This document shows positions 1,647-63,030 of a DNA stretch of 64,000 nucleotides, one piece after another (the stretch's first letter is position 1; each line of letters opens with the position of its first letter). The notes beneath the pieces were generated by a model, which was not told the origin of the DNA, did no database searches, and was given only the letters and a program-made list of their open reading frames with translations. A program made the translations under genes and the position numbers. The DNA comes from Macrostomum lignano. Its lineage: Eukaryota. The DNA is taken from the NCBI GenBank assembly GCA_002269645.1, contig NIVC01003287.1:42487-106486 (forward strand). The letters run 5' to 3'.

Positions 1647-3320
1647 TTAGGATGCACTGAACACCTGCAGTCTCATGTTGCCTCTGTCAGCCACCACCAG
1701 CTGCTCGCGCGGACCTCCCGTCACCACCGCAAGACCCCATGGACGGTTGAATCTGCCGTCTCCGCTGCCGCTCTCGCCCGAAGTCCCCAGAGTCCACAGC
1801 AGCGACCCGTCGTCTGCAGCCACCGCTCGCACTGAGTGACCCCACAATTCACTCACGAACAGGCGGCCTCTGCTGTCGACGGCCACATCCAATGGCCAAA
1901 CAAACTGTTTAAGGCGAGAGCTCTGAGTCGGGAAGGAGGCGACCAGCTGCTGGGTGTCGATGCTCACTCTGTGCACCTGATCGTGCTTAAATTCTGTCAC
2001 CAGCATACAGTTGTCGTGAGTCGCCAGGTTGCGCAGATCAGCACGAGGAAGCTGAGACAGCGTGATGACCGTCTCCATCTGCCAAGTCTCTTTGCTGAAT
2101 GCAGCAATTTTGTTTCCACTGGACACAAACATGGAGGCTGCGTTGCCGCCGATTCCCTTGATGTCACCGAAGTCCCTGATGAATGGGCGGACTCGACGCA
2201 CCGCACGACCGCTCAGGTCCGTCACTGTCACTGCGTCAGGCTGAGCAATGAACAGCAGCTGACGATCGCAGTGAAGGCCACAGATGCGCTGCTTCCAGTC
2301 GATGTCGCAGTGGCACCGCAGCTTCTGTGAGCCGTCCGCAGACAGCACCAGTAGGTGTTTTCTGTTCGGAAGGAATGATGCAAAGATGCAGGGCTGAGGC
2401 AGAGGTTTTCTGCGTTTTTTGCGGTCTCCCGCTGAGTCGGCGGGAACCACACGGCCTGAGCGGTTACCAACGTATCCGCTGGTGTCGCTGCTCACAGCCA
2501 GCCATTGAACTGGGCGATCCAGCTTCACCTCGTGACTGAAGACCATCGGCTCTAACATTCTCTGAGCAGCCTCTATCTCATCAGAAGTCGCGGTCACCGC
2601 AGTCTCTCTCGACCAGTCGCCCTCTTCACTGCGTCCCGCACAAATGCCGACCAGCCGCTCGAGCTGGCCCAGAAGCCGCAGCTGCAGCTCCTCATTGTCG
2701 CTCTGGTCTCTGCGCAGCCGCTCTGACCTCTCAAAGTCGGCCTCCAAGTCTCCAAGCGATTCGTGCATGGACTGGACCAGGCGAAGCAGCTCCGCCATGT
2801 CGCCTGCAGCCTCCGCCGTGGCCACCTCCTGCTTGTAGCTGGAGACGTCCTCGAGGTCCCGCTCGCACACACGCACTGCCTCAAGCACACCTAAGAGCTG
2901 GCCCGTCACCCTGCTACGAAACGAGTCGATGTGTTGCTGTACCAAATCGAATTTGTGATTGACCTCTTGCAGCTGCTGTTGGATGTCGAGAGCGAGACGA
3001 CGCAGCGACTCAGCGTCTTTTCGGTGTCGCAGCAGCGCTGCATGGCCAGCTGCACCTGCTGCGCCTTGTGACTCTTGTGACTCTTGTGACTGTTGTGACT
3101 CTTGTGAGTCTTGTGACTCTTGTGAGTAGGCACGCAGCAGATCGTCGACCTCCTCCTTGAGTTTGAATAGATTGGCCACATCGACACTGAGGTGTTGACT
3201 GCACATGTGGCAGCGGGAGAATGGAGCCACACCGACTGCAGCTTGGTTGCAGATGATGCAGAGAGGAGTTGCGGGAGGCGCGTCCGAACTCGAGCTGTCG
3301 CTGGAGCTGCTGTGGCTCAT
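1647..3320 (-). CDS. Intronless protein with N-terminal Cys/His zinc-binding motif, coiled coil and C-terminal NHL-repeat beta-propeller (TRIM-NHL-like, no RING), 557 aa from ATG 3320
   Basis: Open frame 1647-3362. CIIC-x12-CHMC-x2-H motif, long heptad-rich helical region, NHL-type repeats (WPLDVAVDSRGRLFVSE, RFNRPWGLAVV...LVVADRGNMRLQVF). AATAAA on minus strand at 1458-1463. Start choice (3320 vs 3362) uncertain. Confidence 0.75.
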   Translation of the reverse strand: MSHSSSSDSSSSDAPPATPLCIICNQAAVGVAPFSRCHMCSQHLSVDVANLFKLKEEVDDLLRAYSQESQDSQESQQSQESQESQGAAGAAGHAALLRHRKDAESLRRLALDIQQQLQEVNHKFDLVQQHIDSFRSRVTGQLLGVLEAVRVCERDLEDVSSYKQEVATAEAAGDMAELLRLVQSMHESLGDLEADFERSERLRRDQSDNEELQLRLLGQLERLVGICAGRSEEGDWSRETAVTATSDEIEAAQRMLEPMVFSHEVKLDRPVQWLAVSSDTSGYVGNRSGRVVPADSAGDRKKRRKPLPQPCIFASFLPNRKHLLVLSADGSQKLRCHCDIDWKQRICGLHCDRQLLFIAQPDAVTVTDLSGRAVRRVRPFIRDFGDIKGIGGNAASMFVSSGNKIAAFSKETWQMETVITLSQLPRADLRNLATHDNCMLVTEFKHDQVHRVSIDTQQLVASFPTQSSRLKQFVWPLDVAVDSRGRLFVSELWGHSVRAVAADDGSLLWTLGTSGESGSGDGRFNRPWGLAVVTGGPREQLVVADRGNMRLQVFSAS

Positions 3321-27932: not shown

Positions 27933-28418
27933 TTAGTACAAGCAAAATGAAAATAGAGCACACACAAATACAAGTGCCAATGAAACAGCAGACTGCCTTT
28001 GAGCAAAGTTGCAGCCATTCCAATCGTTGCAAAAGCAATATTTTTTAAATTCGTCGACATCTTCATTAATTTTTGTGTTGGGTCGTTTGTCCAGTGTAGC
28101 CTGAAACGTTTTTGAGTATATGCAGTAACCATGACGGCGAATCATAGGCATTTCGGTCCTGTGCGCAGTAGACTCCAGAAAGCTATCAAGACATCCACGG
28201 GTAATGTATTTTTGTCCGCCAATGCTCTCGATATACTTCACGCAGTAGTTTACAGCAAGCTTTGAATTGTCGCACTTTTTCCAGTGCTGTAGACGTATGT
28301 CGAGCGACTCTCCACACCCCGACCTTCCACTGTGGCATCGATAGCACCAGGTCTCACCAGCATGACTAAAACTAAATAAGAAAATAGTCAAAATACCTAA
28401 AACAATAACTGCTTTCAT
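27933..28418 (-). CDS. Secreted, probably GPI-anchored Ly6/three-finger protein of quiver/sleepless type, 161 aa, intronless
   Basis: Signal peptide MKAVIVLGILTIFLFSFSHA, 10 Cys in CYRC...C...C...CVK...RGC...C...CFCNDWNGCN pattern, hydrophobic C-terminal tail (AVSLALVFVCALFSFCLY). Confidence 0.8.
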   Translation of the reverse strand: MKAVIVLGILTIFLFSFSHAGETWCYRCHSGRSGCGESLDIRLQHWKKCDNSKLAVNYCVKYIESIGGQKYITRGCLDSFLESTAHRTEMPMIRRHGYCIYSKTFQATLDKRPNTKINEDVDEFKKYCFCNDWNGCNFAQRQSAVSLALVFVCALFSFCLY

Positions 28419-28852: not shown

Positions 28853-29551
28853 CCAACACCACCAACAGCAACAAACTACAGCAACCCTGGGCAAGCCAAT
28901 TAAGTTGGGTTGCTGTCAAAACGCGCGCGCAAGCGCAGATTTGCGCAGAATAGCGAGTCCGCGGGGGTCGGAGATTGCAGCGTCTCTTAAAAGCAGGTCG
29001 ACAAAAAGACGCTGACTTCTCGCCTGACCAAGTCGCCGCGGACCTTGAAGGGATAGCAGCAGCACATCTTGAAGCGGCTCAGGGCAGTACTGCTCTGCCC
29101 GGATGACGTGGCCGGCCAGCTGTAGGAGCCGGATGCGTAGCAGCTGGCTGGGTCGGGAAAGCTGAGCCCGTCGGTATAAACTCGTCATTGCTGGTGTTGG
29201 TGGTGGCAGTCGGCGAGTAGTGGACACCGAAGGCGGCTCTCGGGAGTCCAGCGTGAGCGGCGTCTAGTTGCCGCTCCTGCGGGCCGTTCAGTGTCCGTTC
29301 AGACGGCCTGGAACAGCCCCCCTCAGCCGATCCGGCAGCGCGGGGCTCTGCAGGACAGTCCGCACAAGCGCCCAGACAAGCGCCCTGCGCCGTGCCATGT
29401 CCTCCGTGATGCTTGGCACCAGACCGCCGAGGTAGACGAACTCTTTGCAGCGGGGCAGCAACGCCACCTGCCCGTTCGTGCAGCGGCAGTATAGATCTCA
29501 GCTGCATGGGAGGTCCATCGGCACGGTCAACACCATCGTCTTTTTGGTGTT
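28853..29551 (-). mobile_element. 3' part of a decayed RTE-like non-LTR retrotransposon (host of the LTR insertion)
   Basis: Translates to TKKTMVLTVP...EFVYLGGLVP...QLAGHVIRAEQYCPEPLQDVLLL, homologous to the 3' end of the element at 59864-63030; stops and frameshifts; GTT/GTG-rich tail at 28853-28885. Confidence 0.85.
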
Positions 29552-31535
29552 TGATGGGTTTCGACCTTCGGGCTCCTTGTTAGGGAAGCCTTCGGGCCTC
29601 AGGCTCAGAAATAAATCAATTAGAGACCTGGCCCCCCACTCCTGTCAGATGGTCAGCCCCATGGTAGCTTGATCGTGTGGCGAGCAGTCTAGGTCCTATA
29701 GCTAAGAGAGGGACAGCGAGAGACGAGCAGGGAGAATTTTGAAAGTAGAAATTAGCTAATCCGCAGATCAACTAACTTGCTGCCACCAGCCCGTGCGCCC
29801 TGGCTCACCACACCGGGACTCTCGAAATCGGGCTTCCGACTAGAAGGGGCTTTGCACTTACCTGCCAACTAGTGTCTTTTTGCTGTCAATCTCGAAGTCA
29901 TAGCCGATGATAAGGGACACTGCTGGGACTAGATCGCGTTGGCCATGCAGGTACAGAGGGGACTTGTGCAGGGGATTCTTGCGGTGGCGAGTCTATGGGG
30001 TAGCTACATGTACTATTACATTGCTAAATACGAAGGTATGTACTTTTAGCCTTCAACGCGCCAACTAGCCTCTCATAGCGCTGATGATAGGCTAACTCGA
30101 ACTTCAGAGACCTCGCATGATTCATTACCCGAGCCGCTTGGCTAACCTAGAGTGCACAAAGTACATCTCTGGCGCCGATTCTGCACTTCTGGCAGTTTTG
30201 CTCACTGATTTGATTGATTGATCGACTGAGAACCGCCTTGCCATTGGTCCACTGTGACCGGCGCCTACTAGCTTAGCTACTCATCTGAGCCATCGGCGAA
30301 CAAAGAAATAAAACCGATAAAAGTAACTGTCAGATTTAACCTTCTCCTTAGATCACTTCACACTTCGGATCGAATTGGAGTTTCAGACTACTGGCAGTAT
30401 TATTGAATGATTTCTGCCTCAGTAACAGCACCACTGAACAAAATGAGCAAAAGTGTGCGCCTAATTCAGCTACTGAAACAGGGGACAGATAGGGAACCAC
30501 CCAATCAAGCAAGTCTAGGTAGCCTCTCACCCAACCAATCAGAAACTCAACAGCCGGAGACCAGGTAATCCACAGTGACCGAATCGGCTTGATGCTCTGC
30601 AGCTGTAGACTCGGGATGATGCTGTCAAGATCTTCACTGTCAGCTAGCAGGTGATGCTCTTCACTTGATGTTCGCTGCTGATGACCGGGGACTCGTCCTT
30701 GATGATGACGGGGGGAGTCGCAATCCGGGGATCAAGAGACGACGGTCAGGCTCCGGGAGGTCTCTAGCTAGGCCAAGTTCCCAGGAGGTTGAGGTCCGAG
30801 CGGGCCAAAAACACCGGTTTAAATAGCCGCCAACTGGACCGCAGTTTGTTATAACAGAACACGTCGATTCTGATTGGCTGAGCCGTTTTGTTAAAATGAG
30901 CGTCGAATTTTCTGATTGGCTAAGCTTGTTGCTACCAGAATCACGTGACCGAGAGATCCTATCAGTTCCCACAGGGTCGTAAAAAGATGACAGGTGCGGC
31001 CATAAATCACTCAAAATCGCAACAAAATGATTTATGACTTTTCGCGTAGGATTGACAGAAATTAATGAAAAAATATACATTAGAAAGCTCTTATTAAATA
31101 GAAAGTGAAGATAATGAAGAGAAATTGCTAATCGCTAATCCCAAAGTACTTTTAGGGGTAAAACGCATAGCTGTCAAAGCTGTCACACGCTTGAGTGAAT
31201 CCGAACAATAGGCTCTGACCTCATAAATCTTGATGGCCTGTCAAAACGATGAGAAAAAAGCTACGCCCGCATCCTCTCAGACCATCTGGCGCCCGTCTCA
31301 ACACTGAGTGAGGCGCAGGTGGCTGTCAGACCAGCTTCGAAAGCGATGATTTATGACCCAAAAAGCAATGCCTATGTTATTATGACTACTAGTATGGCCA
31401 GACATTATATCTAGTATAGATTCTATGACAATTTGCAGAAAAAGGATAAAAATGCCCATCGCCCACTGTTAGTAGGCTAGTAAATTTAGAGCCCATGTGC
31501 TAGCGCGGGATTTGGAAAAAAGTGCGTCCTCATCA
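29552..31535 (-). repeat. 3' LTR, 1984 bp
   Basis: Direct repeat of 40498-42469, differing by a 14-bp indel, two 1-bp indels and few substitutions. Confidence 0.95.
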
Positions 31536-31539
31536 TATG

Positions 31540-31550
31540 CCCCCCCTATT
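31540..31550 (-). other. Polypurine tract AATAGGGGGGG just upstream of the 3' LTR
   Basis: G-run 4 nt from the LTR start on the minus strand. Confidence 0.65.
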
Positions 31551-33514
31551 TGTGAGTTGATCGCAGATTAACTCAAAAACAACGAAGAAAAATGAGCGCA
31601 GTTTTGTACAAAATCGCAGCTAGCACATCATAAAGAATAGTAAAAATAATAGTTACTCACAAATAGGTATAAGAATATTAAAATAACACGCGTCCCAAGA
31701 AAGGAAATCCCAAAAGAGAAAGAAATTGGGGAAGGGAAAGAATGAAGAAAGAATGGGATCAAAAGAAAGGTGCTTAAAAATAGATATCGCATTTGCCAAT
31801 ACAGTATTAAGTGCGAGATACATGTAAGGGAATAATAAACAGATAAATTATTGCCGCGCGAGTAGACATAGTTCAAAATGTGCGAGATGGGATAAACAGC
31901 GCATGTTCAACGAGACTAAGCTTCATTGTTCGCGTTCGAGTCAGTCTCGATTCTACCTGTTAAGCCTCTTGATGGCTTAATTCCTTTGCCGCGCGGCCGA
32001 CCCGAGCCAGGATGGGCGAGGAGCTTGGGAAATGCGTTGCACATTCTCCCTCCCGCCTGTGGAGTCCACGTGCCAGGGGTTGCCGTGCCCATCTGGCGGC
32101 TGTTGGCGAATGGCGACCCTCAGAGGATTAAGGGACCCTCGAGTCATCTTTGCTGACTGGCTGAGACGCTGCTGGGGGAGGATGACCTCAACCGCCTCGA
32201 GTTCGCAGGGAGATAAAAGCGACTGACCACTCAGGTCATCCACAAATTATGATTTTCATCTTCGAATCCTGCGTCAGCCTTCTACTCGTCAGCCAGCACT
32301 TCGCCACTGCCACCTTTGCTGATTTCGCATCAGGCCAGGCCAGCCACTGCAGACCTCCGATCTTCAACTGGTAAGCCTCATCTCAGCTCTGTGATACTCT
32401 ACCGTACACGTTACTCAATCGAATAATCCCAGACCCATCCCACAGTCTCAGCAACCTTCAGGGTACACTCCCTCTTGTTCATTTGCCCATTCGGTGCTGT
32501 GTAGGATATGTATACTTTAAGATGTATTATGAATAGAGTTTCAGATAAGAGGCAGAATGATTTTGAGCACTAGTGTTATGTTTTAAAAGTTCTTTCGAAG
32601 ATTTTTGTCTTCAAAACTCCGCTTCAATCGCATTCTCTTCCAAGTTTAGTTCACACAATCCTATTTTGTTTTACACTCAGTATTACTACGTATCAGTAGT
32701 ATCGCACGGCCGCGAAATTCAGCTTTAAATTTACCACTCCTAATTTGATTTAGCAATTCGTATTAATCCAGGTGGACCATTCGTACCTTATTTAAGACTT
32801 TTATTAGTTTAATTATTCCTAGCATTCTTCTATATTAATTACCTAATTCGCTCATCGTTGATCTCTTTCTTCGCCTTGGCTCAGTGAGTTTAGTAACACG
32901 AGAAGTCCTAAATTTCAGTTTCAAACTTAACTCAAACCAAGGTTCAGTTTCACATTTAATTTCGAAAGCATTCACGACAAATTAAGCACAATAAGCAAGC
33001 AGTCACATTCACGCACACAACATATTGTTTCTGCCACCATTTGATGAACTTTTTACGCAAAAAATGAGCAAAGAAGAAATTAGGCAAGACAAAATAAGCA
33101 ATGTCACAACAGAGAGAGAAATACCTGGAGATAAATAATGGCACAACATTGAGTATAAATATAAAAAACGCATTTTCAAAGCACCGGGGGATATTCACAG
33201 GGGAATCGGGGGGTACAAAAGACAGTATGAGAAAGCAATGGTTCACGCAATAAGAGGATATATTTACAAGGGGCATAGCAGCACAAAAAAGAAAAATAGG
33301 GAGTTCGAAATTTGCTCCGGCATGACAATAACTTGGTTAAAAGCTGAACATATAAATATAGGTACTGTTCGCTAACTAATCACTTGAGCCGAACGACTTA
33401 ATCGAAAGATTACGTAAAATTTTCCCTAATTAAAAGATTGTCCACATCAGTCCCTCCCTTGGTCTTCTCACTCTTGGTTGGCATTCTGGCTTCGCTGATG
33501 CCTCACCGCCAGGC

Positions 33515-34633
33515 TCAACTCCCAAATCTTCTGGGCGGCTTCAAGAGCAGCAGACCTCTTGAGGACTGAACGCGGGGGTCCTCGCCGCGGTGGAAAACGT
33601 CGTTGAGCAGGTCGTAAGCGAGCCTCAAACGGGGGTACCCGGCCCCGCGCACCAACTCATTGTAAAGCTGGTTTCGCTCGAGCTGCTCGGGCGAAAGCAG
33701 CCAAAACCGCTCGTTAGCCGGGACCACGATCAAACGCTCGCGCAGGCGCTGGGGGCAGGGCTGCAGGAGCGGCAGGCCGCCCCAGTTCTCGGGGGCCTCG
33801 CCGACTGCCAGTATCAGCACCGTCGACTCTAGACAGTCTTGCAGTGCCAGCTGTGCGGCCCATTCGCCCGCTTGGTGAGGCGCGTAGATGAGCAGCGCTG
33901 GCGTGAGGTCGGTAGCCAGCGCAAACAGACCATCATGGAAGACAATAGTATCGGCGCCGCGTAAGCCTAGCACTAGTCGGGCGTACACGACCATCTGTAG
34001 AGCCGTCAGATGAACTTCGTGCCGGCTCAACATGGAGATGATGTTCGCCGCTGCAGCCGGAGTCAGGCCACGATCGACCGCCGCCGGGTAGGGGAAAGCG
34101 AGCAGCTGGGCCAGGTACATGACCGCCCGCCCCGGGTTGCTCAGCTGTAGCGGGGCCAACCGCTGGATTAGATTTGGCCACCTCGTCGCCATCAGCCATG
34201 GGCCCGCACTTTCAACCTCGCGGAAGTGTCGGCTCAGCGCGTCGTAGGCCTCGCCGAAGATCACGCGCCATAGGCTGTTGTCGACGTCGGCCCAGGAGTA
34301 GGCCAGCTCCGTGCCCATCAATGTTGCCGCTCGAGCGTGGGCAGCTCTTAAGGAGTGTCTCTCGTCGATAGCTTGCTGGGCAGCGGGTAGCAGGGTGTAG
34401 TGCAAGGGGCCCTCTCCATGAAGGCGGGTGCCCAGCTGTCCCAGCACTCGATCCTTCGCACTTTGCTCAAGCTGTTCGTGTCTCTCTTCGCCTTCCAGGT
34501 GCCGTAGACCACTCAGGATGGCCGGACGCTCTCCCGTGCTCCCCAGCCCGCCTCGGCTGTGCGGACTGGTCGCGCCGGACGACAGCGGTGAGTGCACTTC
34601 TTCTTTGATAGCGCTAACCAAGAAGGCTTCCAT
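33515..34633 (-). CDS. Orphan 372-aa ORF inside the LTR element, function unknown
   Basis: Uninterrupted GC-rich ORF with globular-looking composition; no signal peptide, no clear transmembrane segment, no RT/IN motifs recognised. Confidence 0.7.
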   Translation of the reverse strand: MEAFLVSAIKEEVHSPLSSGATSPHSRGGLGSTGERPAILSGLRHLEGEERHEQLEQSAKDRVLGQLGTRLHGEGPLHYTLLPAAQQAIDERHSLRAAHARAATLMGTELAYSWADVDNSLWRVIFGEAYDALSRHFREVESAGPWLMATRWPNLIQRLAPLQLSNPGRAVMYLAQLLAFPYPAAVDRGLTPAAAANIISMLSRHEVHLTALQMVVYARLVLGLRGADTIVFHDGLFALATDLTPALLIYAPHQAGEWAAQLALQDCLESTVLILAVGEAPENWGGLPLLQPCPQRLRERLIVVPANERFWLLSPEQLERNQLYNELVRGAGYPRLRLAYDLLNDVFHRGEDPRVQSSRGLLLLKPPRRFGS

Positions 34634-36112
34634 GTCTTCGCAGATGCACAAAGCTCTCACTTACAAACAGAGGATCACAGCTAGCAGAATGCTTTTAGCT
34701 CGCAGAAAGTCAAATTGAATTACAGTCAAAGTTTTCCTTTTTGTATTCGGAGAAAATCAGATAACAGTAAACAGAGGGTGGGGCGACTCCACGTCAGAGT
34801 CACCCTCAGATTGATACAAATCATTTGGGGCGCATAGTAGAAAAAACTCATTATGAGGGCCAATAAAACATTTGAGCTCAACAGACCGTCAACTTTTAGC
34901 AAGAGGAACAAAAAACGAGGGTTACAATGGGGGTCACAATGTGCATGGGGTGCATGGGGGGGGGAGGAGAACGGGAGCGGGGACCAGAGGAGGGAAGAGA
35001 TGAGGGATCCCTGCAGACTAGCTGGGGGGCTAAAAATAGCTACGGCGGATTTCCCCAAGTGAAGAATTGGCTCCTCTAAGTTATGTCAATTGGACTATGA
35101 ACTCAAAGCGATTCAGAATTTCAAGCTAATCCCAATCCTGGCAGCTTCACTCCCTCTCTACCCCTAACCTGCGTCTACCTCTCCACCTCACACCCGCAGA
35201 GGGCGCGCTAATTCTACAACAGAGCCTTATCCTGGGCAAGAAGCTCATTCATGGCGCATTCTCAGTCCTGCCAACAGAGGTGATAGCCCATGGAGACGGC
35301 CAGCTGACACTCCGGCCCCGAGCCGGGACTGCTACTCCGCCTCTAATAGAGGCCACCTTTGCTAACCGCGGCGTGGCTGGACCCGCCCGGAGTGGAGGAG
35401 GTCGCAGCCGCGGTCGCAGTCGGGGTCGGGGCACGCCCAGTAGCGGCGGCACCCGCCCAACTACCGCGGGCACCTCTACCCCCATCGGACACTACAGTGC
35501 TAGCACACCGGAGGCCTCACCAATTTCCGCCTTGGACTCCATTCAAGAGGAGCCCTCAGGTGCGCCTTCCGGTGCTCAACCTGCGGCACCCGCAGCAGCT
35601 GACCTCTCGGTGCGGCTGCAGCAACACGCTAGCGCCCTGCAGGCCTCTGACCATGGCTGCCCTGAACACGACCGCACCGTCGAGTTGTTAGTGCAGGCGG
35701 CCGCTCAGCTCAGCGGTGCCAACTAATTCTCTATTCATGTGCCTAAGGGTTTCTGCCCTTTACTACACCACTTTCACCTTTCATTTGTCCATAAAATCAT
35801 TATTGTATTAATTGCTTCTAAATAACTTCCTAATGCCCTTCTTAATTATATAACCGCTGCACCAGTCTATAGTATCTGTTCCTACCACTAATTCTATTAG
35901 CTATTTTAAATATACTATTTCAGCGTTAACTGCTTCATTTGTAATTTGTTCTAAGAGCTTCTAGTTGCTCCCTCTTAACTGATTTCATCTATTTCCTCTA
36001 TACTGGTACGTCCAACCTGTCATAATACTTTCACGAAATAAACCGGATCTAGCAAAGGATAAGCAAGGGGAAAAGCGAATCGGGCCCCCGACCTTCAGAG
36101 TTCTCAAGGAAG

Positions 36113-36607
36113 TCAACAAAATGGGAGCATTTGCCCCAATACTAATAGATTTCTAGTGTGGTAATCCAACACAGCAGGTGCTGCTGCGAGGAAAGAGTTG
36201 CCCAACAGAGGCCTCGTGCCGGGGTCACTGGCAATCAGGAACATGACAGGCATGGTCTCACTGCCTAAGATGACTGTCAGTTTAGATTGACCCACAATCT
36301 CCAGTCTATGCCCGCTATAGGAATAGATAGAAACTGTAGGGGCCTCCAACCTGTCCATATCATCGTTAGTGGCCGCCACGAAGTCTTTGAAGGGTAAGAT
36401 GGAGACTGCCGACCCAGAATCGATTAAGATTCGGACTGGCAATCTCTCTACTTGAACTTTTACATAAACATCAGCTTGAGAGCTTCTAAATGTTACAGAC
36501 TTCCTAGGGACAATGAAATCGGGTACAAGATTCATTTTCCTTTTGCCACTGTTTACTAAATTTGCCCTTAAAAGTCCAGAAGAGGGGTGAGTGTGGGCGC
36601 CACCCAT
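36113..36607 (-). CDS. Retropepsin-type aspartic protease of the LTR element (probably a -1 frameshift fusion to Gag)
   Basis: VRILIDSGSAVSIL active site, SYSGHRL flap, PLLGNSFL C-terminal motif. Confidence 0.88.
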   Translation of the reverse strand: MGGAHTHPSSGLLRANLVNSGKRKMNLVPDFIVPRKSVTFRSSQADVYVKVQVERLPVRILIDSGSAVSILPFKDFVAATNDDMDRLEAPTVSIYSYSGHRLEIVGQSKLTVILGSETMPVMFLIASDPGTRPLLGNSFLAAAPAVLDYHTRNLLVLGQMLPFC

Positions 36608-36615
36608 CCCTACTC

Positions 36616-37965
36616 TCAGTTTTCCGACCCAGCTGGGAGATAGAAAGTGGGCCGCTGTTTCTGTGCTCCAGGCGCCGGGGTTGGCGGGGGCCTCAAATTC
36701 TCTTCTCCCATACTGCTCTCTCCCTGGGTAGGAACATGCAGAGGAGTCGGGCGCGCGCGTGCACTGTTGCGCAACTGCGGGGGCCGGTAAACCTCAGTTC
36801 TTTCAGTCTGCTTGGCCGAGTCACCATAAATCGCGTTCTGCCTCAATAGTGCGGGCTTCGCTGACAGATTTTGAGATGAGGGGGGCGGGGGCTTGCCCTC
36901 AGGCGGTTGGCTAGCTCGCTCAGTATCTTCTACCACGGTGAGGTCTCCCTCCCAATGATCTGAGTGGCTCATCATGGCCTGATCAATCCTCTCCGCAACC
37001 TGGCTCATAGCGCCGTAAATCTTGCCGACGGTTTCATCTAGGTTGTTTTGACGCTGCTGTAAATCTGCCAGTGCCTCTTCCACTTCCCTTCCTTCCTCCG
37101 ACTCTAGCATGCGGACCCACCTGCGCTGATATTCTCTGTCGCTGGGGCGATTTTGATCTCTGTTTCTCTCGTCCCTACGCTGATCATATCTGGGCTGGTC
37201 TCGCGCTAAGCGCCGGGAAATCTCATCTGCCTCTTGGAGATTCTGCTGTGCTGCCAGCACTTCATCAATGCTGCGAAACTGTTGCCCTAGCAGCGACTTG
37301 CGCACATCTGGGGCGATGTCAGCTGTTTCCAAGTAGGCAAAGATCACCTCCGACTCTAACTGTCTAGGACTCATGTCGGGGTAAGCAGAAGCTATCACGC
37401 TACGCACCATGGCCGAATAGGCGTGGTGATTCTGGCCTGCCTTCTGTTTTAGATTCCGGACCTTGTTCCTCTTCGCTAGTTCTGAGCTGGCCTCTCCTAC
37501 CTGGCGACCTAACCTTTCTATAAATTCCTCAAAGTCAAGGCCGGGATGGAGGGCAATAGCAAGACTCTGCAGATCTGGGGGGAGGAGCGAGATTACTGTG
37601 TTCTTCTTCTGCTCTCTGTCCCTAATCTCTTCAGATCTGAGCTTGAATTTGACTCTGTCAACCCACTGGGGAAAGCAGGATTCTGCTGGGTTGAATTTCT
37701 CAACGCTAATCTTGACACTCTGTGTCTCTCTGCCCAATCCGATAGCTGCAAGGGCTTGCGCTAATTGGGCTGCCATGTCGGCGGCTTGGGGTTGAGGTGG
37801 GGCTCTCTGCGGGGATGACCCGCACTCTGATACATTTGGGGAGACCGAGCCCTGGGACGAAAAATCGCAGGCGGCTGCAGCGGCGGCTGCTGATCCGTTC
37901 CTATTCCCTCTACCTCTTCTGCCTCTACCTCCTGACTTACTGGTACTGGAATTACATGTTTCCAT
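36616..37965 (-). CDS. gag: Gag-like capsid protein, 449 aa
   Basis: EKFNP...FPQWVDR, FEEFIERL, LKQKAGQNHHAYSAMVRSVIASAYP resemble Ty3/Gypsy capsid; lies between PBS and protease; no CCHC knuckle seen. Confidence 0.8.
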   Translation of the reverse strand: METCNSSTSKSGGRGRRGRGNRNGSAAAAAAACDFSSQGSVSPNVSECGSSPQRAPPQPQAADMAAQLAQALAAIGLGRETQSVKISVEKFNPAESCFPQWVDRVKFKLRSEEIRDREQKKNTVISLLPPDLQSLAIALHPGLDFEEFIERLGRQVGEASSELAKRNKVRNLKQKAGQNHHAYSAMVRSVIASAYPDMSPRQLESEVIFAYLETADIAPDVRKSLLGQQFRSIDEVLAAQQNLQEADEISRRLARDQPRYDQRRDERNRDQNRPSDREYQRRWVRMLESEEGREVEEALADLQQRQNNLDETVGKIYGAMSQVAERIDQAMMSHSDHWEGDLTVVEDTERASQPPEGKPPPPSSQNLSAKPALLRQNAIYGDSAKQTERTEVYRPPQLRNSARARPTPLHVPTQGESSMGEENLRPPPTPAPGAQKQRPTFYLPAGSEN

Positions 37966-40477
37966 AGTTCGGGCACAACACCAGTTGCCGGGACAGAACT
38001 AAAGGATGAAAATCTGAACCGGGGCGGAAAAAATGAATGCAATTGGCTATTAGCCGAATTTGGGTGTCTGCTTCAAAGCAAGGCAATGGCAATGAATCGA
38101 ATCGAATGGGGGGAAAAGGGGGGAGAATGTGCAAAAAGCCTAACTGGGGTAGGGTTTTGACACAAGTGAGCAATGGGGGATTGAGCGCCGCGAATGGGGA
38201 AGCTCAAGACAAAAGCAATAAATTACAAGCAAAAATAAGCAAAAAGCAAAAAACACGCAAATAAGCAAAAGATACGCGATCTATATACAAAAAGCGTACA
38301 ATACGAGCGCGGGGCTTGCGATAATGATCGCAAACACAGCACAAAAATGGAAAAATATGCAAAAACCAACAAAGCGGAAACTTCACTTATTCCACTCACA
38401 CCGCAGTCACACTTGACTTCAAATTTTTCACACCTAAAATCCTTCTGTCTCTGTCTTGAATCCGATCTCGGATTTTCTCGAATTGCTGCTTTTAAACTCA
38501 CTGATTCTCAACTGGGCTATGGCCACAGCTTTCCGCAGGCTACTACAGTCTCAGTCTCTCTTTCTCTCTGAGCGGCTCTTTTTGCTTCCGAATAGTTTTA
38601 ATGGGCTAGTAAATCATGGAGGGTCTCATCAGCTCTTATTAGCCTAAATTGCAGGCGCCAATATGTGGGCACCTCATGTGTATTAGAGCTCTCCTGCGTG
38701 GTATGGCCACTAGGAAACCTTCCAGGTGCTGCTACGGCTAGACAGATTCACAATCCCCGTCGAGGTTGCTCTCTTTGTGGAACTTGGACGTCTGACACAG
38801 TTCGCCCAGTGGCCCCTCTGTGTAGCTTTCGTCAGCATTGACTGGTGAGGGCGGATTACACCTAATAAACGATACTCGCGAACAGACAGATAACACACAA
38901 GGAGTTAAGCAGGTCCGTAGTGTAGTGTTCACTCCGCAACAAAACCTTTTGGCACGGTCCCTAAGAATTTTGATCATAGAAAAAGCTACGGGCAGCAGGA
39001 AAGTTTGTCAAATATTATGACCCTACGTTATCGGGTCGGGTATTTTTATAGCGGCGAACCACAGAAGACATCTGTGTCTTGAGTCAGTAGAGTCTGTCCA
39101 GACAAAGCTGCGCTCCCCTCCTCTTGCTATCATAAAAATGAATAGCCACGGCGTTTTCTGCTCTCTGCAGAATCGTTAACCAGAGCGGTAGCTGGAATTC
39201 GCACATACTACCATGGCACCGTGTGGGTAATTCTCTCCGCTTTCCTTACTGTATTTACATTAGATACCCCTCCAATTCTAAGAAAGAACCGAAAGGGCAA
39301 AAGCAAACTTCCAAACCCTAAATTCCGCAACCAGGAAAAATTACATGTGCACTGGCAAACTGTACTACTGAAAGTAATACCTACACACTTTCCAGACTCC
39401 TAGGCTAAGCAGATGGTAAACGTGCGAACTTAAAGTAACTTCAGACCTCACAATTCTGTACCCAAACCCAAAGTAGCGTGGCTGTTCTCGCGTTCTGGTA
39501 GCCGTCGACCCCAGACATATTTTTCAGGACATGGATGTCTGACACAGGAAACCATCCAGAGGCCCAACGGCACAGCACTTGCCATTGTTAGCCGGAATAC
39601 CGAGAATTGCGGTGGGAATTTGAGCTCTCCGTTGCCACTTAAGGCGATTTATACCACCAAAGCCCGAATAGCGGACAACAATTCGTGAGAAGCACTCAGA
39701 TAGAACACCCCGATTTAGATCGAAATGATACTATAATCACACAGTACGCTAATCCGACTGTCCCGTACTAATCTGCTCCAGAGTATAACCTTTGAACCCA
39801 AAACCCGTGAGGCCCTGCGTATGAAACCAAGGCTTCGCACATCCAAAAAGCTGCCTGATTCTAAATTTTGCAAACAAGACAAAAACTACGAGCGCTGTCA
39901 GCATTCTATAATGAACGTTTTGGCCGAGGAAGCATTATCATTCGGATAATGGCCTCTTGTCTACACGACAAAAATTAATAGCTTAATTTCGAGTGATCAG
40001 TTCGAAACTTTTCTGTTTAGCAAAAGTACAAGAACTATCCTAAGTCTCTATTTTCCGCATAATTAGCTGGCTGAAATCAAAACTGGAGAACTAAGCAGAG
40101 AGCCTAGATAACTGATCAAGCTGAGAGAGTTATATGTGCGGGGTTGATTTTTTTTATATGCTCTGGCTTTTTGAATTTTTATAATTTTTTTGGTTGATTT
40201 TTTGGAATAGGCATGCATTTAATGGTAATCAATTCATACTAGTAATTTTTTTGGTTCCAGTAGCATAAATTTTTTGTGCATTTTTGGACTCTCATAATTC
40301 AGACTTGAAAAGCTATCGCAGCTGACTACTTACAGTAATCTAATAGAAACCTAAATTCCCAATTTTGAAATCTAAACGGCGCAACTCGATTTTATTATTC
40401 TGTCACAATTTGCCATTTACCAGCTATCACTACCGGTCAGCACTTTACCACTTCCTACCGGCTAGTGTTTACCAAAC

Positions 40478-40495
40478 ATCCCACCGCTGCCACCA
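40478..40495 (-). other. Primer-binding site TGGTGGCAGCGGTGGGAT, complementary to the 3' 18 nt of tRNA-Leu
   Basis: Plus strand reads ATCCCACCGCTGCCACCA, the recalled 3' end of eukaryotic tRNA-Leu including CCA; 2 nt from the 5' LTR. Confidence 0.88.
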
Positions 40496-40497
40496 TT

Positions 40498-59863: not shown

Positions 59864-62800
59864 ATAACAACAGCAACAGAGTACGCTGCCAGTTCACAAA
59901 AGCAGCGTCAGATGGCGCGCTTCAAAGCTTGGGCGCGAACAAAAGCCGCACCGCCGGCAGAGTCCGGGGCGCCGGCGTCAGCCAGCAGACAGTCGACGTA
60001 GCGCCGAGACTTCGCCTGTCCCCGCCGGTAGGGTGCCTGCAACGTAAGTAGCAGCACCTCCTGCACCGGCTCCGGACAGTAGGCCTCGGCGCGGATGACG
60101 TGGCCTGCCAGCTGGAGTCGCCGACGGCGCAGCAGATCGCTAGGACGGGCCAGGCCGGCGCGATGATAGAGCGCCGTGTTGGTGACTCGCTCGTTGCCGA
60201 TCTTGAAGGCGGCGCGCAGCAGGCCAGCGTGCGCCGCGTCGACTTGAGCCTCGAGCGAGTCTGTCAGCGTCCAGGTCTCGGCGTTCTATAACAGGACGGT
60301 CTCGATCACCGCCTGGAACAGCGCCGCCCTCTGGCGGTCCGGTAGGGCCTCGGACTGCAGGACTGACCTTATAGAACGAAAGGCAGCCCAAGCAAGTCCT
60401 CGGCGACGCCGCAGATCCTCGCGGACGTCGGGAACCAGACCGCCGAGGTAGACGAACTGCTGACATCTTGGAAGCTCACTCGCCTGTCCGTCAGCGCCTC
60501 GGCAGAAGATTGCAGCCTCGGTGTCGTCCGGCACGCATAGCACGACGGTCTTCTGCGTGTTGACCACCAGGCCGACGCTCGCCGCAACGGCAACCAGCCT
60601 ATCCAGCTGTCGTTGGGCGCCCTCGACGGTCGAGGACAGCAGGGCGAGGTCATCGGCGTAGCCAAGCACGCTGAGCCGTCTCTCCGGTTGGCGTCGACCC
60701 ACGCGTCGCCGCAGCAGGAAGCCGTCGTCGTTGGAAGGCAGAGCAGTCCGTAGCACCCAGTCAAGCACCAGAATAAATAGGAACGGCGCTAGCGTATCTC
60801 CCTGGAGCACCCCGGAGGATGTCTCGAAGAAATCCGATAGGCCGTCCGGTGTTGAGACAGCAGCCGTCGTGCCGTGGTACAGCGCCATGACAGCAGAAAT
60901 CAGCAGCTCTGGCACGTTGTACGCACGGAGCACCTCTGGGAGCGCGTCCCTCACGACCGAGTCGAAAGCCTTCCTGAAATCGACGAAGATCAGGATCAGG
61001 GTCAACTGGCGGATGCGCGCCTCCTCGATGACTCGTCGAAGAGCCAGGATCTGCGTCACTGTGCCGCGATGGGGCCGGAATCCGTTCTGCTCAGGTCGCA
61101 GGTACGGGTCCAGCACAGGCTGTAACCGCGATAGCAGCATGCGGTTGAACAGCTTCGCGGCGCAGGACTGTAGGCAGATGCCTCGATGCTCCTCGAGCTT
61201 GGTGGTGCCGGCTTCTTTGGAATGGCGACGATGTGCGCCGTGGTCCATTCGTTTGGCGCCACCTCACCGAAAAGCACGCGGTTCATCACTCTGGCGACCT
61301 CAGTGGCCACGCAGTGGATCCGCAGCGCCTCGGTGGGCACCTCGTCCGGACCAAGCGCTTTGCCGCCCGGCGACTGCCGAGCGAACTTCACAACGTCGGC
61401 TGTGCTGACTGGGGCAACATTGAAGCTCTCCTCCGCGGCAACGGCGTCTCGGCGGCAGCCTCAGATTTTCTGGAAGCGGAGGGGCGGCGCGTTGACAATG
61501 GCGGCGAAGAACTCGCGCAGCTCGTTCCTGCGCTCATCCGGAGTGTCGCCTGCCAGGTTGAGCGCGATGCGCCGCTTTCGCCCCGTCAGAGTGTTGATGG
61601 CGGACCAGGCCAAGCGCCTCTGGCATCGGGCCCTGCGGCAGAGACGGCTTGGATGGCGTCATCGACAGCGGACTGCTGCCGCTGCAGGTAGACAGCCGCC
61701 AGAGCCTCCTCCGCCTCGCGAGTTGGCCGCCCACTCAGTCGGAGCCTCTCCAGATCTTCCCTCGCTTCGTCGATCGCGGGGTCGTCCTGCCAGACCGGCT
61801 GCCCGCGCTGGGCCGGTCGCATCAGCGGGACTGCTTGCTCCGCAGCGGCTCGAACTGCAGCGCTCACCTCCGCGTACTCGGCTCCTCCACGCTTGTCGCC
61901 CAGCGCAGTGACAAAGGCACCGGCAAAGCGACGTCGCGTCTCGGCGTCCCTGAGCGCGCGGTAGTAGCGCCGCGGTGGCCGCTTTGGCGGACGGTAGAGC
62001 GGGTCCCGAAGCCGAAGGTCGCAGATGAGCAGCCGATGGTCGGACCGCAGAGCCAGCGGCGTAATGGTGTGGCAGTTGGTGACGCGGCGGCGCTCACGAA
62101 AGCGCACAAGCACGTGGTCGAGCTGTGCCAGCCTCCGCGTAGCGTTCCGGCCGCGCGCGTTCCGCCGCCTCCGCTTGCAGCCCACGAAGGTCGCGAGCCT
62201 GCCCGGTGACTTGCGGAATCTGGTGTTGGCCGACACCATGTCCTGTCTCTCCAGGAAGTCCTCTAGCGCTCCGGTGTTGCCGTTCTCGCGCGCTGTCACA
62301 AACAGCGATCGCTCGGACCTACGCAGAACTGCGTTCAGGTCTCCGAGAATGACCACTGTGTCACGTTGCGCCATCTCCTCCACCCGCACCGAGAGTTGCT
62401 CGAAGAAGGCCTGAGCCTCATCGGAGCGGGTAGCAGGCGGCGCATACGCGCAGAACAGGCGGGTGTTCCGGCCGCGAAGCCGGACGTCGACCCGAAGCAG
62501 CCGAGAAGACAGGGAGATGCAGCGACAGCTCTGCTGCAGCCTCGGTCCGATCAGCGCTCCAACTCCTCCACGGCCTCGCTCATCCGCTGAGGTGTACCAG
62601 AGTGTCCAACCGGCGCCCAGGTCCTCACAGTGAAGTCCGGGGTCGGCTCTGATAGACACCTCCTGTAGTGCGATGACATCACAGCTGAGGTCGAGCGCTA
62701 GCCTCGCCAGCAGCCCTCTCCGCCATGTGGCCTTGAGAGTGCGGCAGTTCAGCGTCCCGACCCGAAGCGTGCCTTCTGGTACGGCTGGGGCTCGATGCTG

Positions 62801-63030
62801 GTGAGCCTCATGGTCCCCGGCGCCACCCGGAAGATCCAATTGGGCCAGCGCAGCAGCAGCTCGGCGGGCGGCGCCACGTTGCCGACCTCGCCAGTTTCGC
62901 TCGCGACGGCGTTCAACTCGCCGACGCGCGCTCCGCTGCCCTCGCTTGGTCCTGCCGCATTTGGCCGCCGCAGCAGTTAAGCGCGGCTCTCCACTCTCAC
63001 CACGAGGAGGTAGCGGCATTTATCTGCACC
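59864..63030 (-). mobile_element. RTE-like non-LTR retrotransposon, near full length, single APE-RT ORF (59908-63019) disrupted by frameshifts and stops
   Basis: APE motifs (GTLNCRTL, LQEV, LGDLN, QLDHVLV, SDHR); RT motifs (EQNGFR, FVDFRKAFDS, GVLQGDTLAPFLF, YADD, FVYLG); breaks near 61600, 61400-61470, 61215 and a TAG at 60286; GTT-rich tail at 59864-59880. Confidence 0.93.
62953..63018 (-). ncRNA. HDV-like ribozyme core at the 5' end of the RTE-like element (5' strand of P1 missing)
   Basis: P2 TGCCGC/GCGGCA, P3 ACC/GGT, L3 TCCTCGT, P1 3' strand GAGAGT, GG for P1.1, P4 GCCGC/GCGGC, J4/2 CAAAT. Confidence 0.65.

Follow-up and report, generated by a model that had tools for sequence, protein, structure and literature searches.

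An orphan protein family borne by the Gag-protease half of a probably complementary pair of LTR elements in the flatworm Macrostomum lignano

In maize, the LTR retrotransposon family RLG00001 is split between Cinful elements, which carry POL, and Zeon elements, which carry GAG, and 25 families whose GAG and POL reside on different copies are described in the available text of that study (PMC8547701). One-way dependents have also been described: TR-GAG elements, which are below 4 kb and encode only gag, with neither protease nor RT and with a tRNA-Leu primer site, and BARE-2, which has no gag and depends on the complete BARE-1 (available text of PMC4350172). As for cargo genes, LTR elements of bdelloid rotifers carry non-Env ORF3s after a complete pol, and according to the accessible part of the source these are family-specific, are exchanged between elements and keep the catalytic residues of known families, namely GDSL/SGNH esterases and DEDDy exonucleases (PMC5408684). 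Finally, CERV of the C. elegans element Cer1 is described, in the text available, as a lineage-restricted accessory protein required for RNA export, made from a spliced transcript with exons in common with gag and containing a predicted G-protein-like domain devoid of catalytic residues (PMC10309623).

Here we analyze a 64,000-nucleotide stretch of the Macrostomum lignano genome (hereafter the window), which contains an LTR element coding for Gag, an aspartic protease and an orphan protein, ORF3. The element resembles each of the above systems in part. As in Cinful and Zeon, coding capacity is divided among LTR-sharing copies with homogenized cis signals, and almost no maize copy has both gene sets: the criterion there is less than 1%, and here no such copy occurs among the 78 protease and 12 close RT matches listed from the best candidates scored. 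On the available maize text, the split there separates GAG from the whole polyprotein including the protease, whereas here the protease stays with Gag and each half has its own capsid-type Gag, the two being only about 25% alike. Further differences are the animal host, the two accessory genes on one half, and the recurrence of the split in two families with unalignable LTRs. With TR-GAG and BARE-2 it has in common a partial coding set, mobilized in trans in those elements; it lies outside the TR-GAG class as the available text defines it, as it spans 12.9 kb and has a protease plus two additional ORFs, and our searches returned no complete partner for it. ORF3 itself resembles the rotifer proteins in being a non-Env product encoded in the env position, but it matches no known family and sits in a pol-less element. 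Like CERV, it is lineage-restricted and has a predicted enzyme-like domain without catalytic residues, though no homology to CERV was found.

In the openly available literature covered, we found no LTR family split after the protease, no split case from an animal and no restriction-like cargo that is inactive. As far as the source text extends, the only split LTR families documented there are those of maize, divided into GAG and POL (PMC8547701). A survey of Macrostomum elements starts from RT, and its main text does not use the words "protease", "non-autonomous" or "ORF" (PMC12801592); RT-based surveys of this kind would be blind to the RT-less half, which is the commoner one. The origin of segmented genomes and their resistance to cheating is a standing question, which a protease-level split that has persisted while two families diverged, in a flatworm that seems tractable in the laboratory, would make testable by knock-down and particle proteomics. 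With ORF3, LTR elements would in addition gain a new family of cargo proteins and perhaps a newly recruited fold.

The host element and its accessory frames

The element displays the features of Ty3/gypsy LTR retrotransposons, namely TG...CA LTRs, a primer binding site, a polypurine tract, a target-site duplication, gag and a gypsy-type protease (Table 1). We detected no RT, RNase H or integrase in it. The empty site in public contigs indicates that the insertion is recent or polymorphic, although the target is itself a repeat. This target is a decayed LINE fragment (28990-29547 and 42474-42600); a related LINE, with frames for endonuclease and RT, occupies about 60100-63000. Contig depth over the two LTRs exceeds that of the internal region about fifty- to several hundredfold, pointing to many solo LTRs or other users of the LTR, and a query spanning the LTR-leader junction, including the LTR end, recovered 1291 candidates. 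Neither LTR has a canonical heat-shock element.

Table 1. Features of the host element, with positions in the window
Feature	Position	Strand	Remarks
LTR element hosting ORF3 (type I, family A)	29552-42469	-	12.9 kb; gag and protease, without RT/RNase H/integrase
5' LTR	40498..42469	-	TG...CA, about 1.97 kb
3' LTR	29552..31535	-	against 5' LTR: 2 mismatches, 3 gaps over 1989 columns
Polypurine tract	31536..31552	-	adjoins 3' LTR
4-bp target-site duplication	29548..29551 left; 42470-42473 right	.	empty site in public contigs
Primer binding site	40478..40495	-	identical in families A and B
Leader, 2.5 kb	37966..40477	-	~96% alike in protease-less partner elements
Type I gag, 449 aa	36616..37965	-	RG-rich N-terminus, no CCHC zinc knuckle
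Aspartic protease frame, DSG motif	36113..36793	-	-1 frame, overlaps gag end
Antisense accessory frame, 198 aa, no ATG	35130..35726	+	RG-rich stretch; splice-acceptor-like site near 35199
ORF3, orphan accessory gene	33515..34633	-	ATG-to-stop 372 aa; family frame kept from residue 1 to ~353
ORF3 C-terminal tail, conserved	33470..33570	-	other frame in window copy; type II element joins shared 3' region here, ~33580
ORF3 residues 226-310, predicted three-strand meander, helix, strand, helix, strand	33704..33958	-	first model and alignment

At the junction of gag and protease a slippery-like heptamer (36625-36619) lies just ahead of the gag stop; its pattern is non-canonical, and the corresponding junction of the sister family B, described below, is a canonical slippery heptamer. 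Between the protease and ORF3 lies a frame on the opposite strand, whose acceptor-like site consists of a branch-point-like CTAAC, a pyrimidine tract and a CAG, and for which no first exon was found. Comparison with diverged copies gives it a dN/dS of 0.21-0.22, and comparison with a near-identical copy, on 12 differences, gives 1.9; as judged from the diverged copies, the antisense frame is under purifying selection. Family B has at the same place a Pro/Ala-rich antisense frame that is unrelated, the two frames failing to align.

ORF3 as a conserved element-borne protein family

ORF3 lies downstream of gag and protease in an LTR element without pol, which agrees with its placement, in a sequence-only reading of this locus, as cargo in the env/pol position. 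First-order Markov simulation of the region produced a frame of at least 354 aa in none of 1000 trials (mean longest 110, maximum 309), and an origin of the frame by chance is excluded. The same reading regarded the frame as intact over 372 aa. The ATG-to-stop frame is indeed real, but after residue ~353 it departs from that of the copies with full-length frames, C4636 (388 aa), C1545 (385 aa) and C2406 (391 aa), and hence the last ~19 of the 372 residues do not represent the C-terminus of the family. This break may be a real mutation or an assembly error: each of three spanning public contigs has one gap somewhere along its alignment to the window, and these contigs may derive from other copies. 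The frame is lost earlier in two further copies, C847 (after ~334) and C1987 (after 313). Both the frameshifted end and the element being one half of what is probably a complementary pair had been overlooked. A frame not conserved among copies, which would have spoken against that reading, is contradicted by the three copies just named, which keep it to 385-391 aa.

A genome search with ORF3 gave 18 matches on 13 contigs (all 56 candidates scored), and every homolog found resides in an LTR element or a truncated relic of one, the distribution for which the sequence-only reading had proposed to look. The contigs C2038, C1319 and C822 have truncated ORF3 relics. An apparent placement of ORF3 after the integrase of complete elements was rejected, the neighbouring gypsy element of C2038 being a nested insertion with its own 620-bp LTRs, and weak matches at C708, C3324 and C2929 were likewise discarded as homologs. 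An integrase match at C616 was set aside as an unrelated insert; it belongs to a 2.1-kb integrase-only segment within a family-B type I copy (L117:7700-10000; G000:C616, about 43000-45000), which resembles a Ginger-like transposon. The most diverged family-A ORF3 is that of C100 (G000:C100:608364-612045; L029, L030), which follows gypsy pol fragments, still matches family A at 86% in the 3' region and terminates in a short foldback; around this copy, at 608.8 kb of its contig, we found no pair of LTRs.

The dN/dS of ORF3 is 0.089 for the window and C2406 (dS 0.78), 0.094-0.184 in comparisons with the C100 copy and 0.099 for the pair of family-B variants; near-identical copies give noisy values of 0.28 and 0.86 (19 and 7 differences). 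By these comparisons, ORF3 is a real gene under purifying selection that has been conserved for long. Identities along the element are uneven: between the window and C2406, gag is 97% identical, the protease 87%, the antisense frame 69% and ORF3 82%, and between the window and C4636, gag is 94% identical and each of the other three 98%; the protease-accessory cassette has therefore been exchanged between subfamilies. No ORF3 match is present at 8 of 15 type I-A protease loci (from a protease search in which the best 150 candidates were scored), and C2246, C380 and C181 are recent type I insertions without it. Going by these loci, ORF3 is not needed in cis, which agrees with a role in trans but also with a dispensable one. 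We consider it very probable that ORF3 is an element-encoded trans-acting protein.

A search with the C100 copy detected three further matches of weak significance (E 2.4-6.4), each 3' of a related gag and on the same strand. These define family B, whose ORF3 is 449 aa long and has the same place and strand as that of family A. Its C-terminal half is found at 24 loci at 99-100% and at one at 85% (61 matches; all 64 candidates scored). The ORF3s of the two families are about 25% identical, align in hhalign with E 2e-4 over 148 columns and recover each other in reciprocal genome matches at E 0.008-0.012.

Beyond the genome, ORF3 matched nothing in Pfam, PHROGs, NCBIfam, PDB or large protein sets, confirming that it is neither a fragment of a known host gene nor one of a known pol domain. 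Protein searches by word matching, run with the window ORF3, a six-sequence alignment and the family-B C-terminal half and each scoring ~8000 candidates of near lengths only, returned no relative outside this genome, and the same was true of an Atlas search with the whole ORF3 and of searches of viral and metagenome contigs. The two matches from a full HMMER scan are bacterial PKD-repeat proteins and were rejected, as their score was summed from weak repeats. Foldseek comparisons with PDB and with viral models gave nothing at E <= 0.001. The hydrophobic segments quoted earlier are present (TIVFH at 229, LLIYA at 247, VLILAV at 272 and LIVVP at 301), as is the Ser/Gly-rich N-terminus, with Ser or Gly at 12 of residues 16-45. 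The view that the protein has no transmembrane helix and is no Env also stands: its highest 19-residue hydropathy is 1.37, the maxima of three homologs are 1.64-1.71, and in this hydropathy scan no hydrophobic N-terminus is seen. With 2 Cys and 0 N-x-S/T sites, the window protein does not resemble a cysteine-rich glycosylated Env ectodomain. On its sequence characters ORF3 is an orphan, element-borne and non-Env protein family.

Protease-less partners and the division of coding capacity

The LTR-leader junction search recovered two elements, C3095 and C1757, which resemble the window element at their ends: the match takes in the two LTRs, the leader and 39 bases at the start of gag and, on the other side, the 3' region from ~33580. 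Between these shared ends, however, lies another gag, fused to a dUTPase-like spacer, RT, RNase H and integrase, and a protease is missing. We term the elements with Gag and protease type I and those with the Gag-Pol fusion type II. Genome searches scored the best 150 of 4178 candidates for RT and the best 150 of 1087 for protease; a complete copy could hence be missed, and the genome counts are lower bounds. Within this scope, 12 RTs are at least 73% identical to the partner RT, all at type II loci, and none of the 78 protease matches lies beside any of them. Four protease queries found no protease in 11 type II loci, one of which (C1114) is uninformative as it ends at a contig edge. In the next-closest, outgroup loci, with 45-48% identical RTs, the protease is directly upstream in seven of seven, at the point where the type II Gag of both families joins the dUTPase-like spacer directly. 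No copy combining both halves with family A or B LTRs is present among the matches listed.

In family B the type II element is a single 1553-aa frame, and six copies share the LTR, leader and 3' region with type I-B at 96-99%. The full frame is present in two of nine type II-B gag matches, the others being broken by indels that are possibly assembly errors. Families A and B are 73% identical in RT, 77% in integrase and 40% in protease, and their LTRs do not align. Family B is divided in the same way as family A, with Gag and protease on one element and Gag-Pol without protease on the other. A midpoint-rooted tree built from 13 Gags, with one type II row only 41% filled, separates the six A/B sequences from seven outgroup ones (100/100) and unites the type II Gags of the two families (99/98). 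This grouping of the type II Gags of the two families is most simply explained by a split that predates the A/B divergence. The CCHC knuckle is found in none of the six A/B Gags, as against six of seven outgroup Gags.

Each type II element shares its LTR and leader with type I of its own family at 93-99%, and the type II LTR and leader have no match in 14 outgroup stretches. Both types have inserted recently: identity between the LTRs of a pair is 99.3-99.9% in each type, the 4-bp duplications lie at distinct sites, and young insertions include the type I copies C4636, C2246, C380 and C181 and the type II copies C1757, C936, C1115, C691 and C4365 (at C650 and C254 the flanks do not match). The two type II-A copies share a frame break ~37 codons into their gag, and one has a second break; given the shared early break, no fully open family-A partner was found in the assembly. 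C3095 and C1757 also retain the ORF3 tail, which looks like a template-switching crossover.

We propose that type I RNA would be translated into Gag and, by -1 frameshifting, a Gag-protease fusion, and type II RNA into a Gag-Pol polyprotein that would co-assemble through its own capsid domain and be cut in trans by the type I protease. The two RNAs would be packaged together, with template switching keeping their ends alike; such co-packaging would account for ends that are about 95-99% alike despite gags that are only about 25% alike. A mutual dependence of type I and type II is, from this sequence evidence, probable. The alternative is one-way parasitism, in which type II needs no partner protease, as it borrows one from gypsy elements or the host or works uncut, type I is a non-autonomous Gag-protease derivative, and ORF3 serves the spread of type I. 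Such an arrangement would fit with type II having its own Gag, with the complete protease-bearing gypsy families being common (the seven outgroup loci above), and with type I outnumbering type II, by 15 to 2 loci in family A and by about 60 protease to 10 RT matches in family B among the best 150 candidates scored. Also, the primer binding site, which we take to be of the tRNA-Leu type, is widely shared, occurring 709 times in the genome, and the enzymes of other families could in principle serve either half. However, an intact type I protease is kept in both families and would be superfluous in a pure parasite of a protease-independent element, the type II LTR and leader, compared also with 14 outgroup stretches, are common only to type I, and the Pol of Ty3/gypsy elements requires proteolysis. 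We accordingly regard one-way parasitism as rather unlikely.

Predicted fold and candidate roles of ORF3

The AlphaFold models of ORF3 are poor, with a mean pLDDT of 42.5 for the first and 34.3 for the second, and a homodimer prediction, in which the alignment was not used, had a score of 0.00. In the first model the region of residues ~212-305 forms a helix, three consecutive strands and a helix-strand-helix-strand unit, at a pLDDT of about 35-50. Residues of this core invariant between the families are DG (Asp234), Y-x-P, WAA-x-L, A-x-G and GL; Asp234, invariant in all six aligned proteins, is placed by the first model at the start of strand 2, the position of the PD aspartate in PD-(D/E)XK nucleases. 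Among the 29 fold matches of this model that cover residues 209 onward, 12 are with proteins that we assign to the PD-(D/E)XK-like class (six rows of Can2, with Card1, Can1, EndoMS, Mus81-Eme1, XisH and a viral polymerase subunit); these have the best Z (up to 4.9), with rmsd 3.2-4.5 over 72-106 aligned residues. The other 17 are with AIF (8), acetyl-CoA carboxylase (4) and five others, Rossmann-type rows among them. In a wider search EcoT38I was the sole one of 50 rows listed that was confined to the domain (Z 5.5, rmsd 4.1, 82 aligned). All these Z-scores fall below 8, the tool's level for common arrangements. The second model yielded no nuclease among its 50 listed rows and has predicted helices at 239-252.

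The predicted likeness of ORF3 to the domains of Can2/Card1, EndoMS, XisH and EcoT38I thus consists in the strand and helix order at residues 226-310 and the invariant Asp; it is structurally weak, is seen in one of two models and is accompanied by no sequence match. ORF3 further differs from these nucleases in that [DE]-x-K is found nowhere in the window protein, Y-x-P occupying its place on strand 3, and the six-protein alignment has no second invariant acidic residue in the core. We hold the restriction-endonuclease-like fold as a tentative prediction, with the balance slightly against it, and the first model weakly suggests that the protein would be a disarmed nuclease with a missing (D/E)xK motif.

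Two other folds had been suggested for the protein. An SGNH-like fold finds no support, as the GDS motif is present in none of four ORF3 proteins and the D-x-x-H matches are not aligned between the families. A Rossmann-like fold is not favoured: the sole GxGxxG of family A is in the variable, low-complexity N-terminus, family B has none, and the better model has three consecutive strands with no helices between them, although the models are too poor to exclude this fold. These observations bear on whether ORF3 might be an active enzyme, either a nuclease with a site rearranged around Asp234 or a protein with another alpha/beta fold (HAD-like, Rossmann-like). The invariance of Asp-Gly, Tyr, Pro and Trp at 25% overall identity would be in keeping with catalysis, as would the Rossmann-type rows and the precedent of the enzymatic rotifer ORF3s in the text available (PMC5408684). 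An Atlas search with the C-terminal half gave only HAD-like neighbours, at a score of 0.80, but shuffled proteins reach that level one third of the time. Considering these chance-level matches and the lack of a GDS, of [DE]-x-K in the window protein and of a second invariant core acid, we think an active enzyme quite unlikely.

A short motif, V/I-N-R/A-I/L, occurs at residue 6-7 in four of five ORF3 proteins and once, immediately ahead of RT, in each type II Pol (7e-5 expected per site); it was noticed post hoc, and the window ORF3 has a variant of it. This motif may be a site of the element protease. Together with the CCHC knuckle missing from the Gags, it suggests that ORF3 binds nucleic acid in the particle after trimming by the protease: it would be translated from a start codon of its own, may be cut by the element protease at the N-terminal motif, and would bind element RNA or cDNA, perhaps replacing the zinc-knuckle nucleocapsid that all A/B Gags lack. 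Particle-associated nucleic-acid binding, taken by itself, is a doubtful though reasonable possibility on these motifs.

ORF3 could instead act outside the particle, with a fold of its own, as a nuclear regulator that either exports unspliced RNA in the manner of Rev or CERV or suppresses host silencing. A basic RKRP stretch near the N-terminus of family-B ORF3, the long leader and the antisense frame with its acceptor-like site would accord with this, and CERV, in the text available, offers the precedent of an orphan with an enzyme-like domain minus catalytic residues (PMC10309623). Against it, the basic stretch is missing from family A, protein searches revealed no sequence likeness to CERV, and no splice joint is listed for the region, for which only contigs were covered. 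We judge a nuclear role to be fairly improbable.

Taken as a whole, our preferred reading is that ORF3 is an accessory gene on the Gag-protease half, that RT, RNase H and integrase reside on a protease-less element with the same LTRs, that the halves likely complement each other, and that ORF3 is likely a trans-acting, non-catalytic nucleic-acid binder with a restriction-endonuclease-like fold; we give this combination an even chance. A bolder version would envisage an old and stable two-segment animal retrotransposon lineage forming mixed particles, one segment contributing the capsid, protease and accessory genes and the other a second capsid fused to a protease-less Pol, with ORF3 as a disarmed, protease-trimmed restriction-endonuclease fold new to retroelements that replaces the nucleocapsid or sets the balance of RNA packaging. 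In this full form the proposal is speculative and distinctly improbable.

Several other loci were noted in the course of the searches. The closest complete gypsy families have a DnaJ-domain ORF after the integrase, one of them with a chromodomain (L161:1724-2599, L163:2111-3193, L166:4903-5901). In another gypsy family a cold-shock domain lies between the zinc knuckle and the protease (L061:3368-9235, G000:C2038; L029:3-1709, G000:C100). At L057:2898-6445 (G000:C1674) a distantly related gag precedes a zinc-finger ORF and a frame of 855 aa without a Pfam match, which we presume, from its motif, to be a tyrosine recombinase. Another orphan ORF with a similar helical end segment occurs 3' of gypsy genes at L029:8102-9229 (C100) and L065:8293-8805 (C1674). 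Within the window, about 1.1 kb past the 3' LTR, an intronless minus-strand gene at 27933-28418 encodes a 161-aa protein with a signal-peptide-like start, a cysteine-rich body, a hydrophobic end and a weak DUF753 match, and a second intronless gene at 1647-3320, also on the minus strand, codes for a 557-aa protein with a coiled-coil and NHL-repeats.
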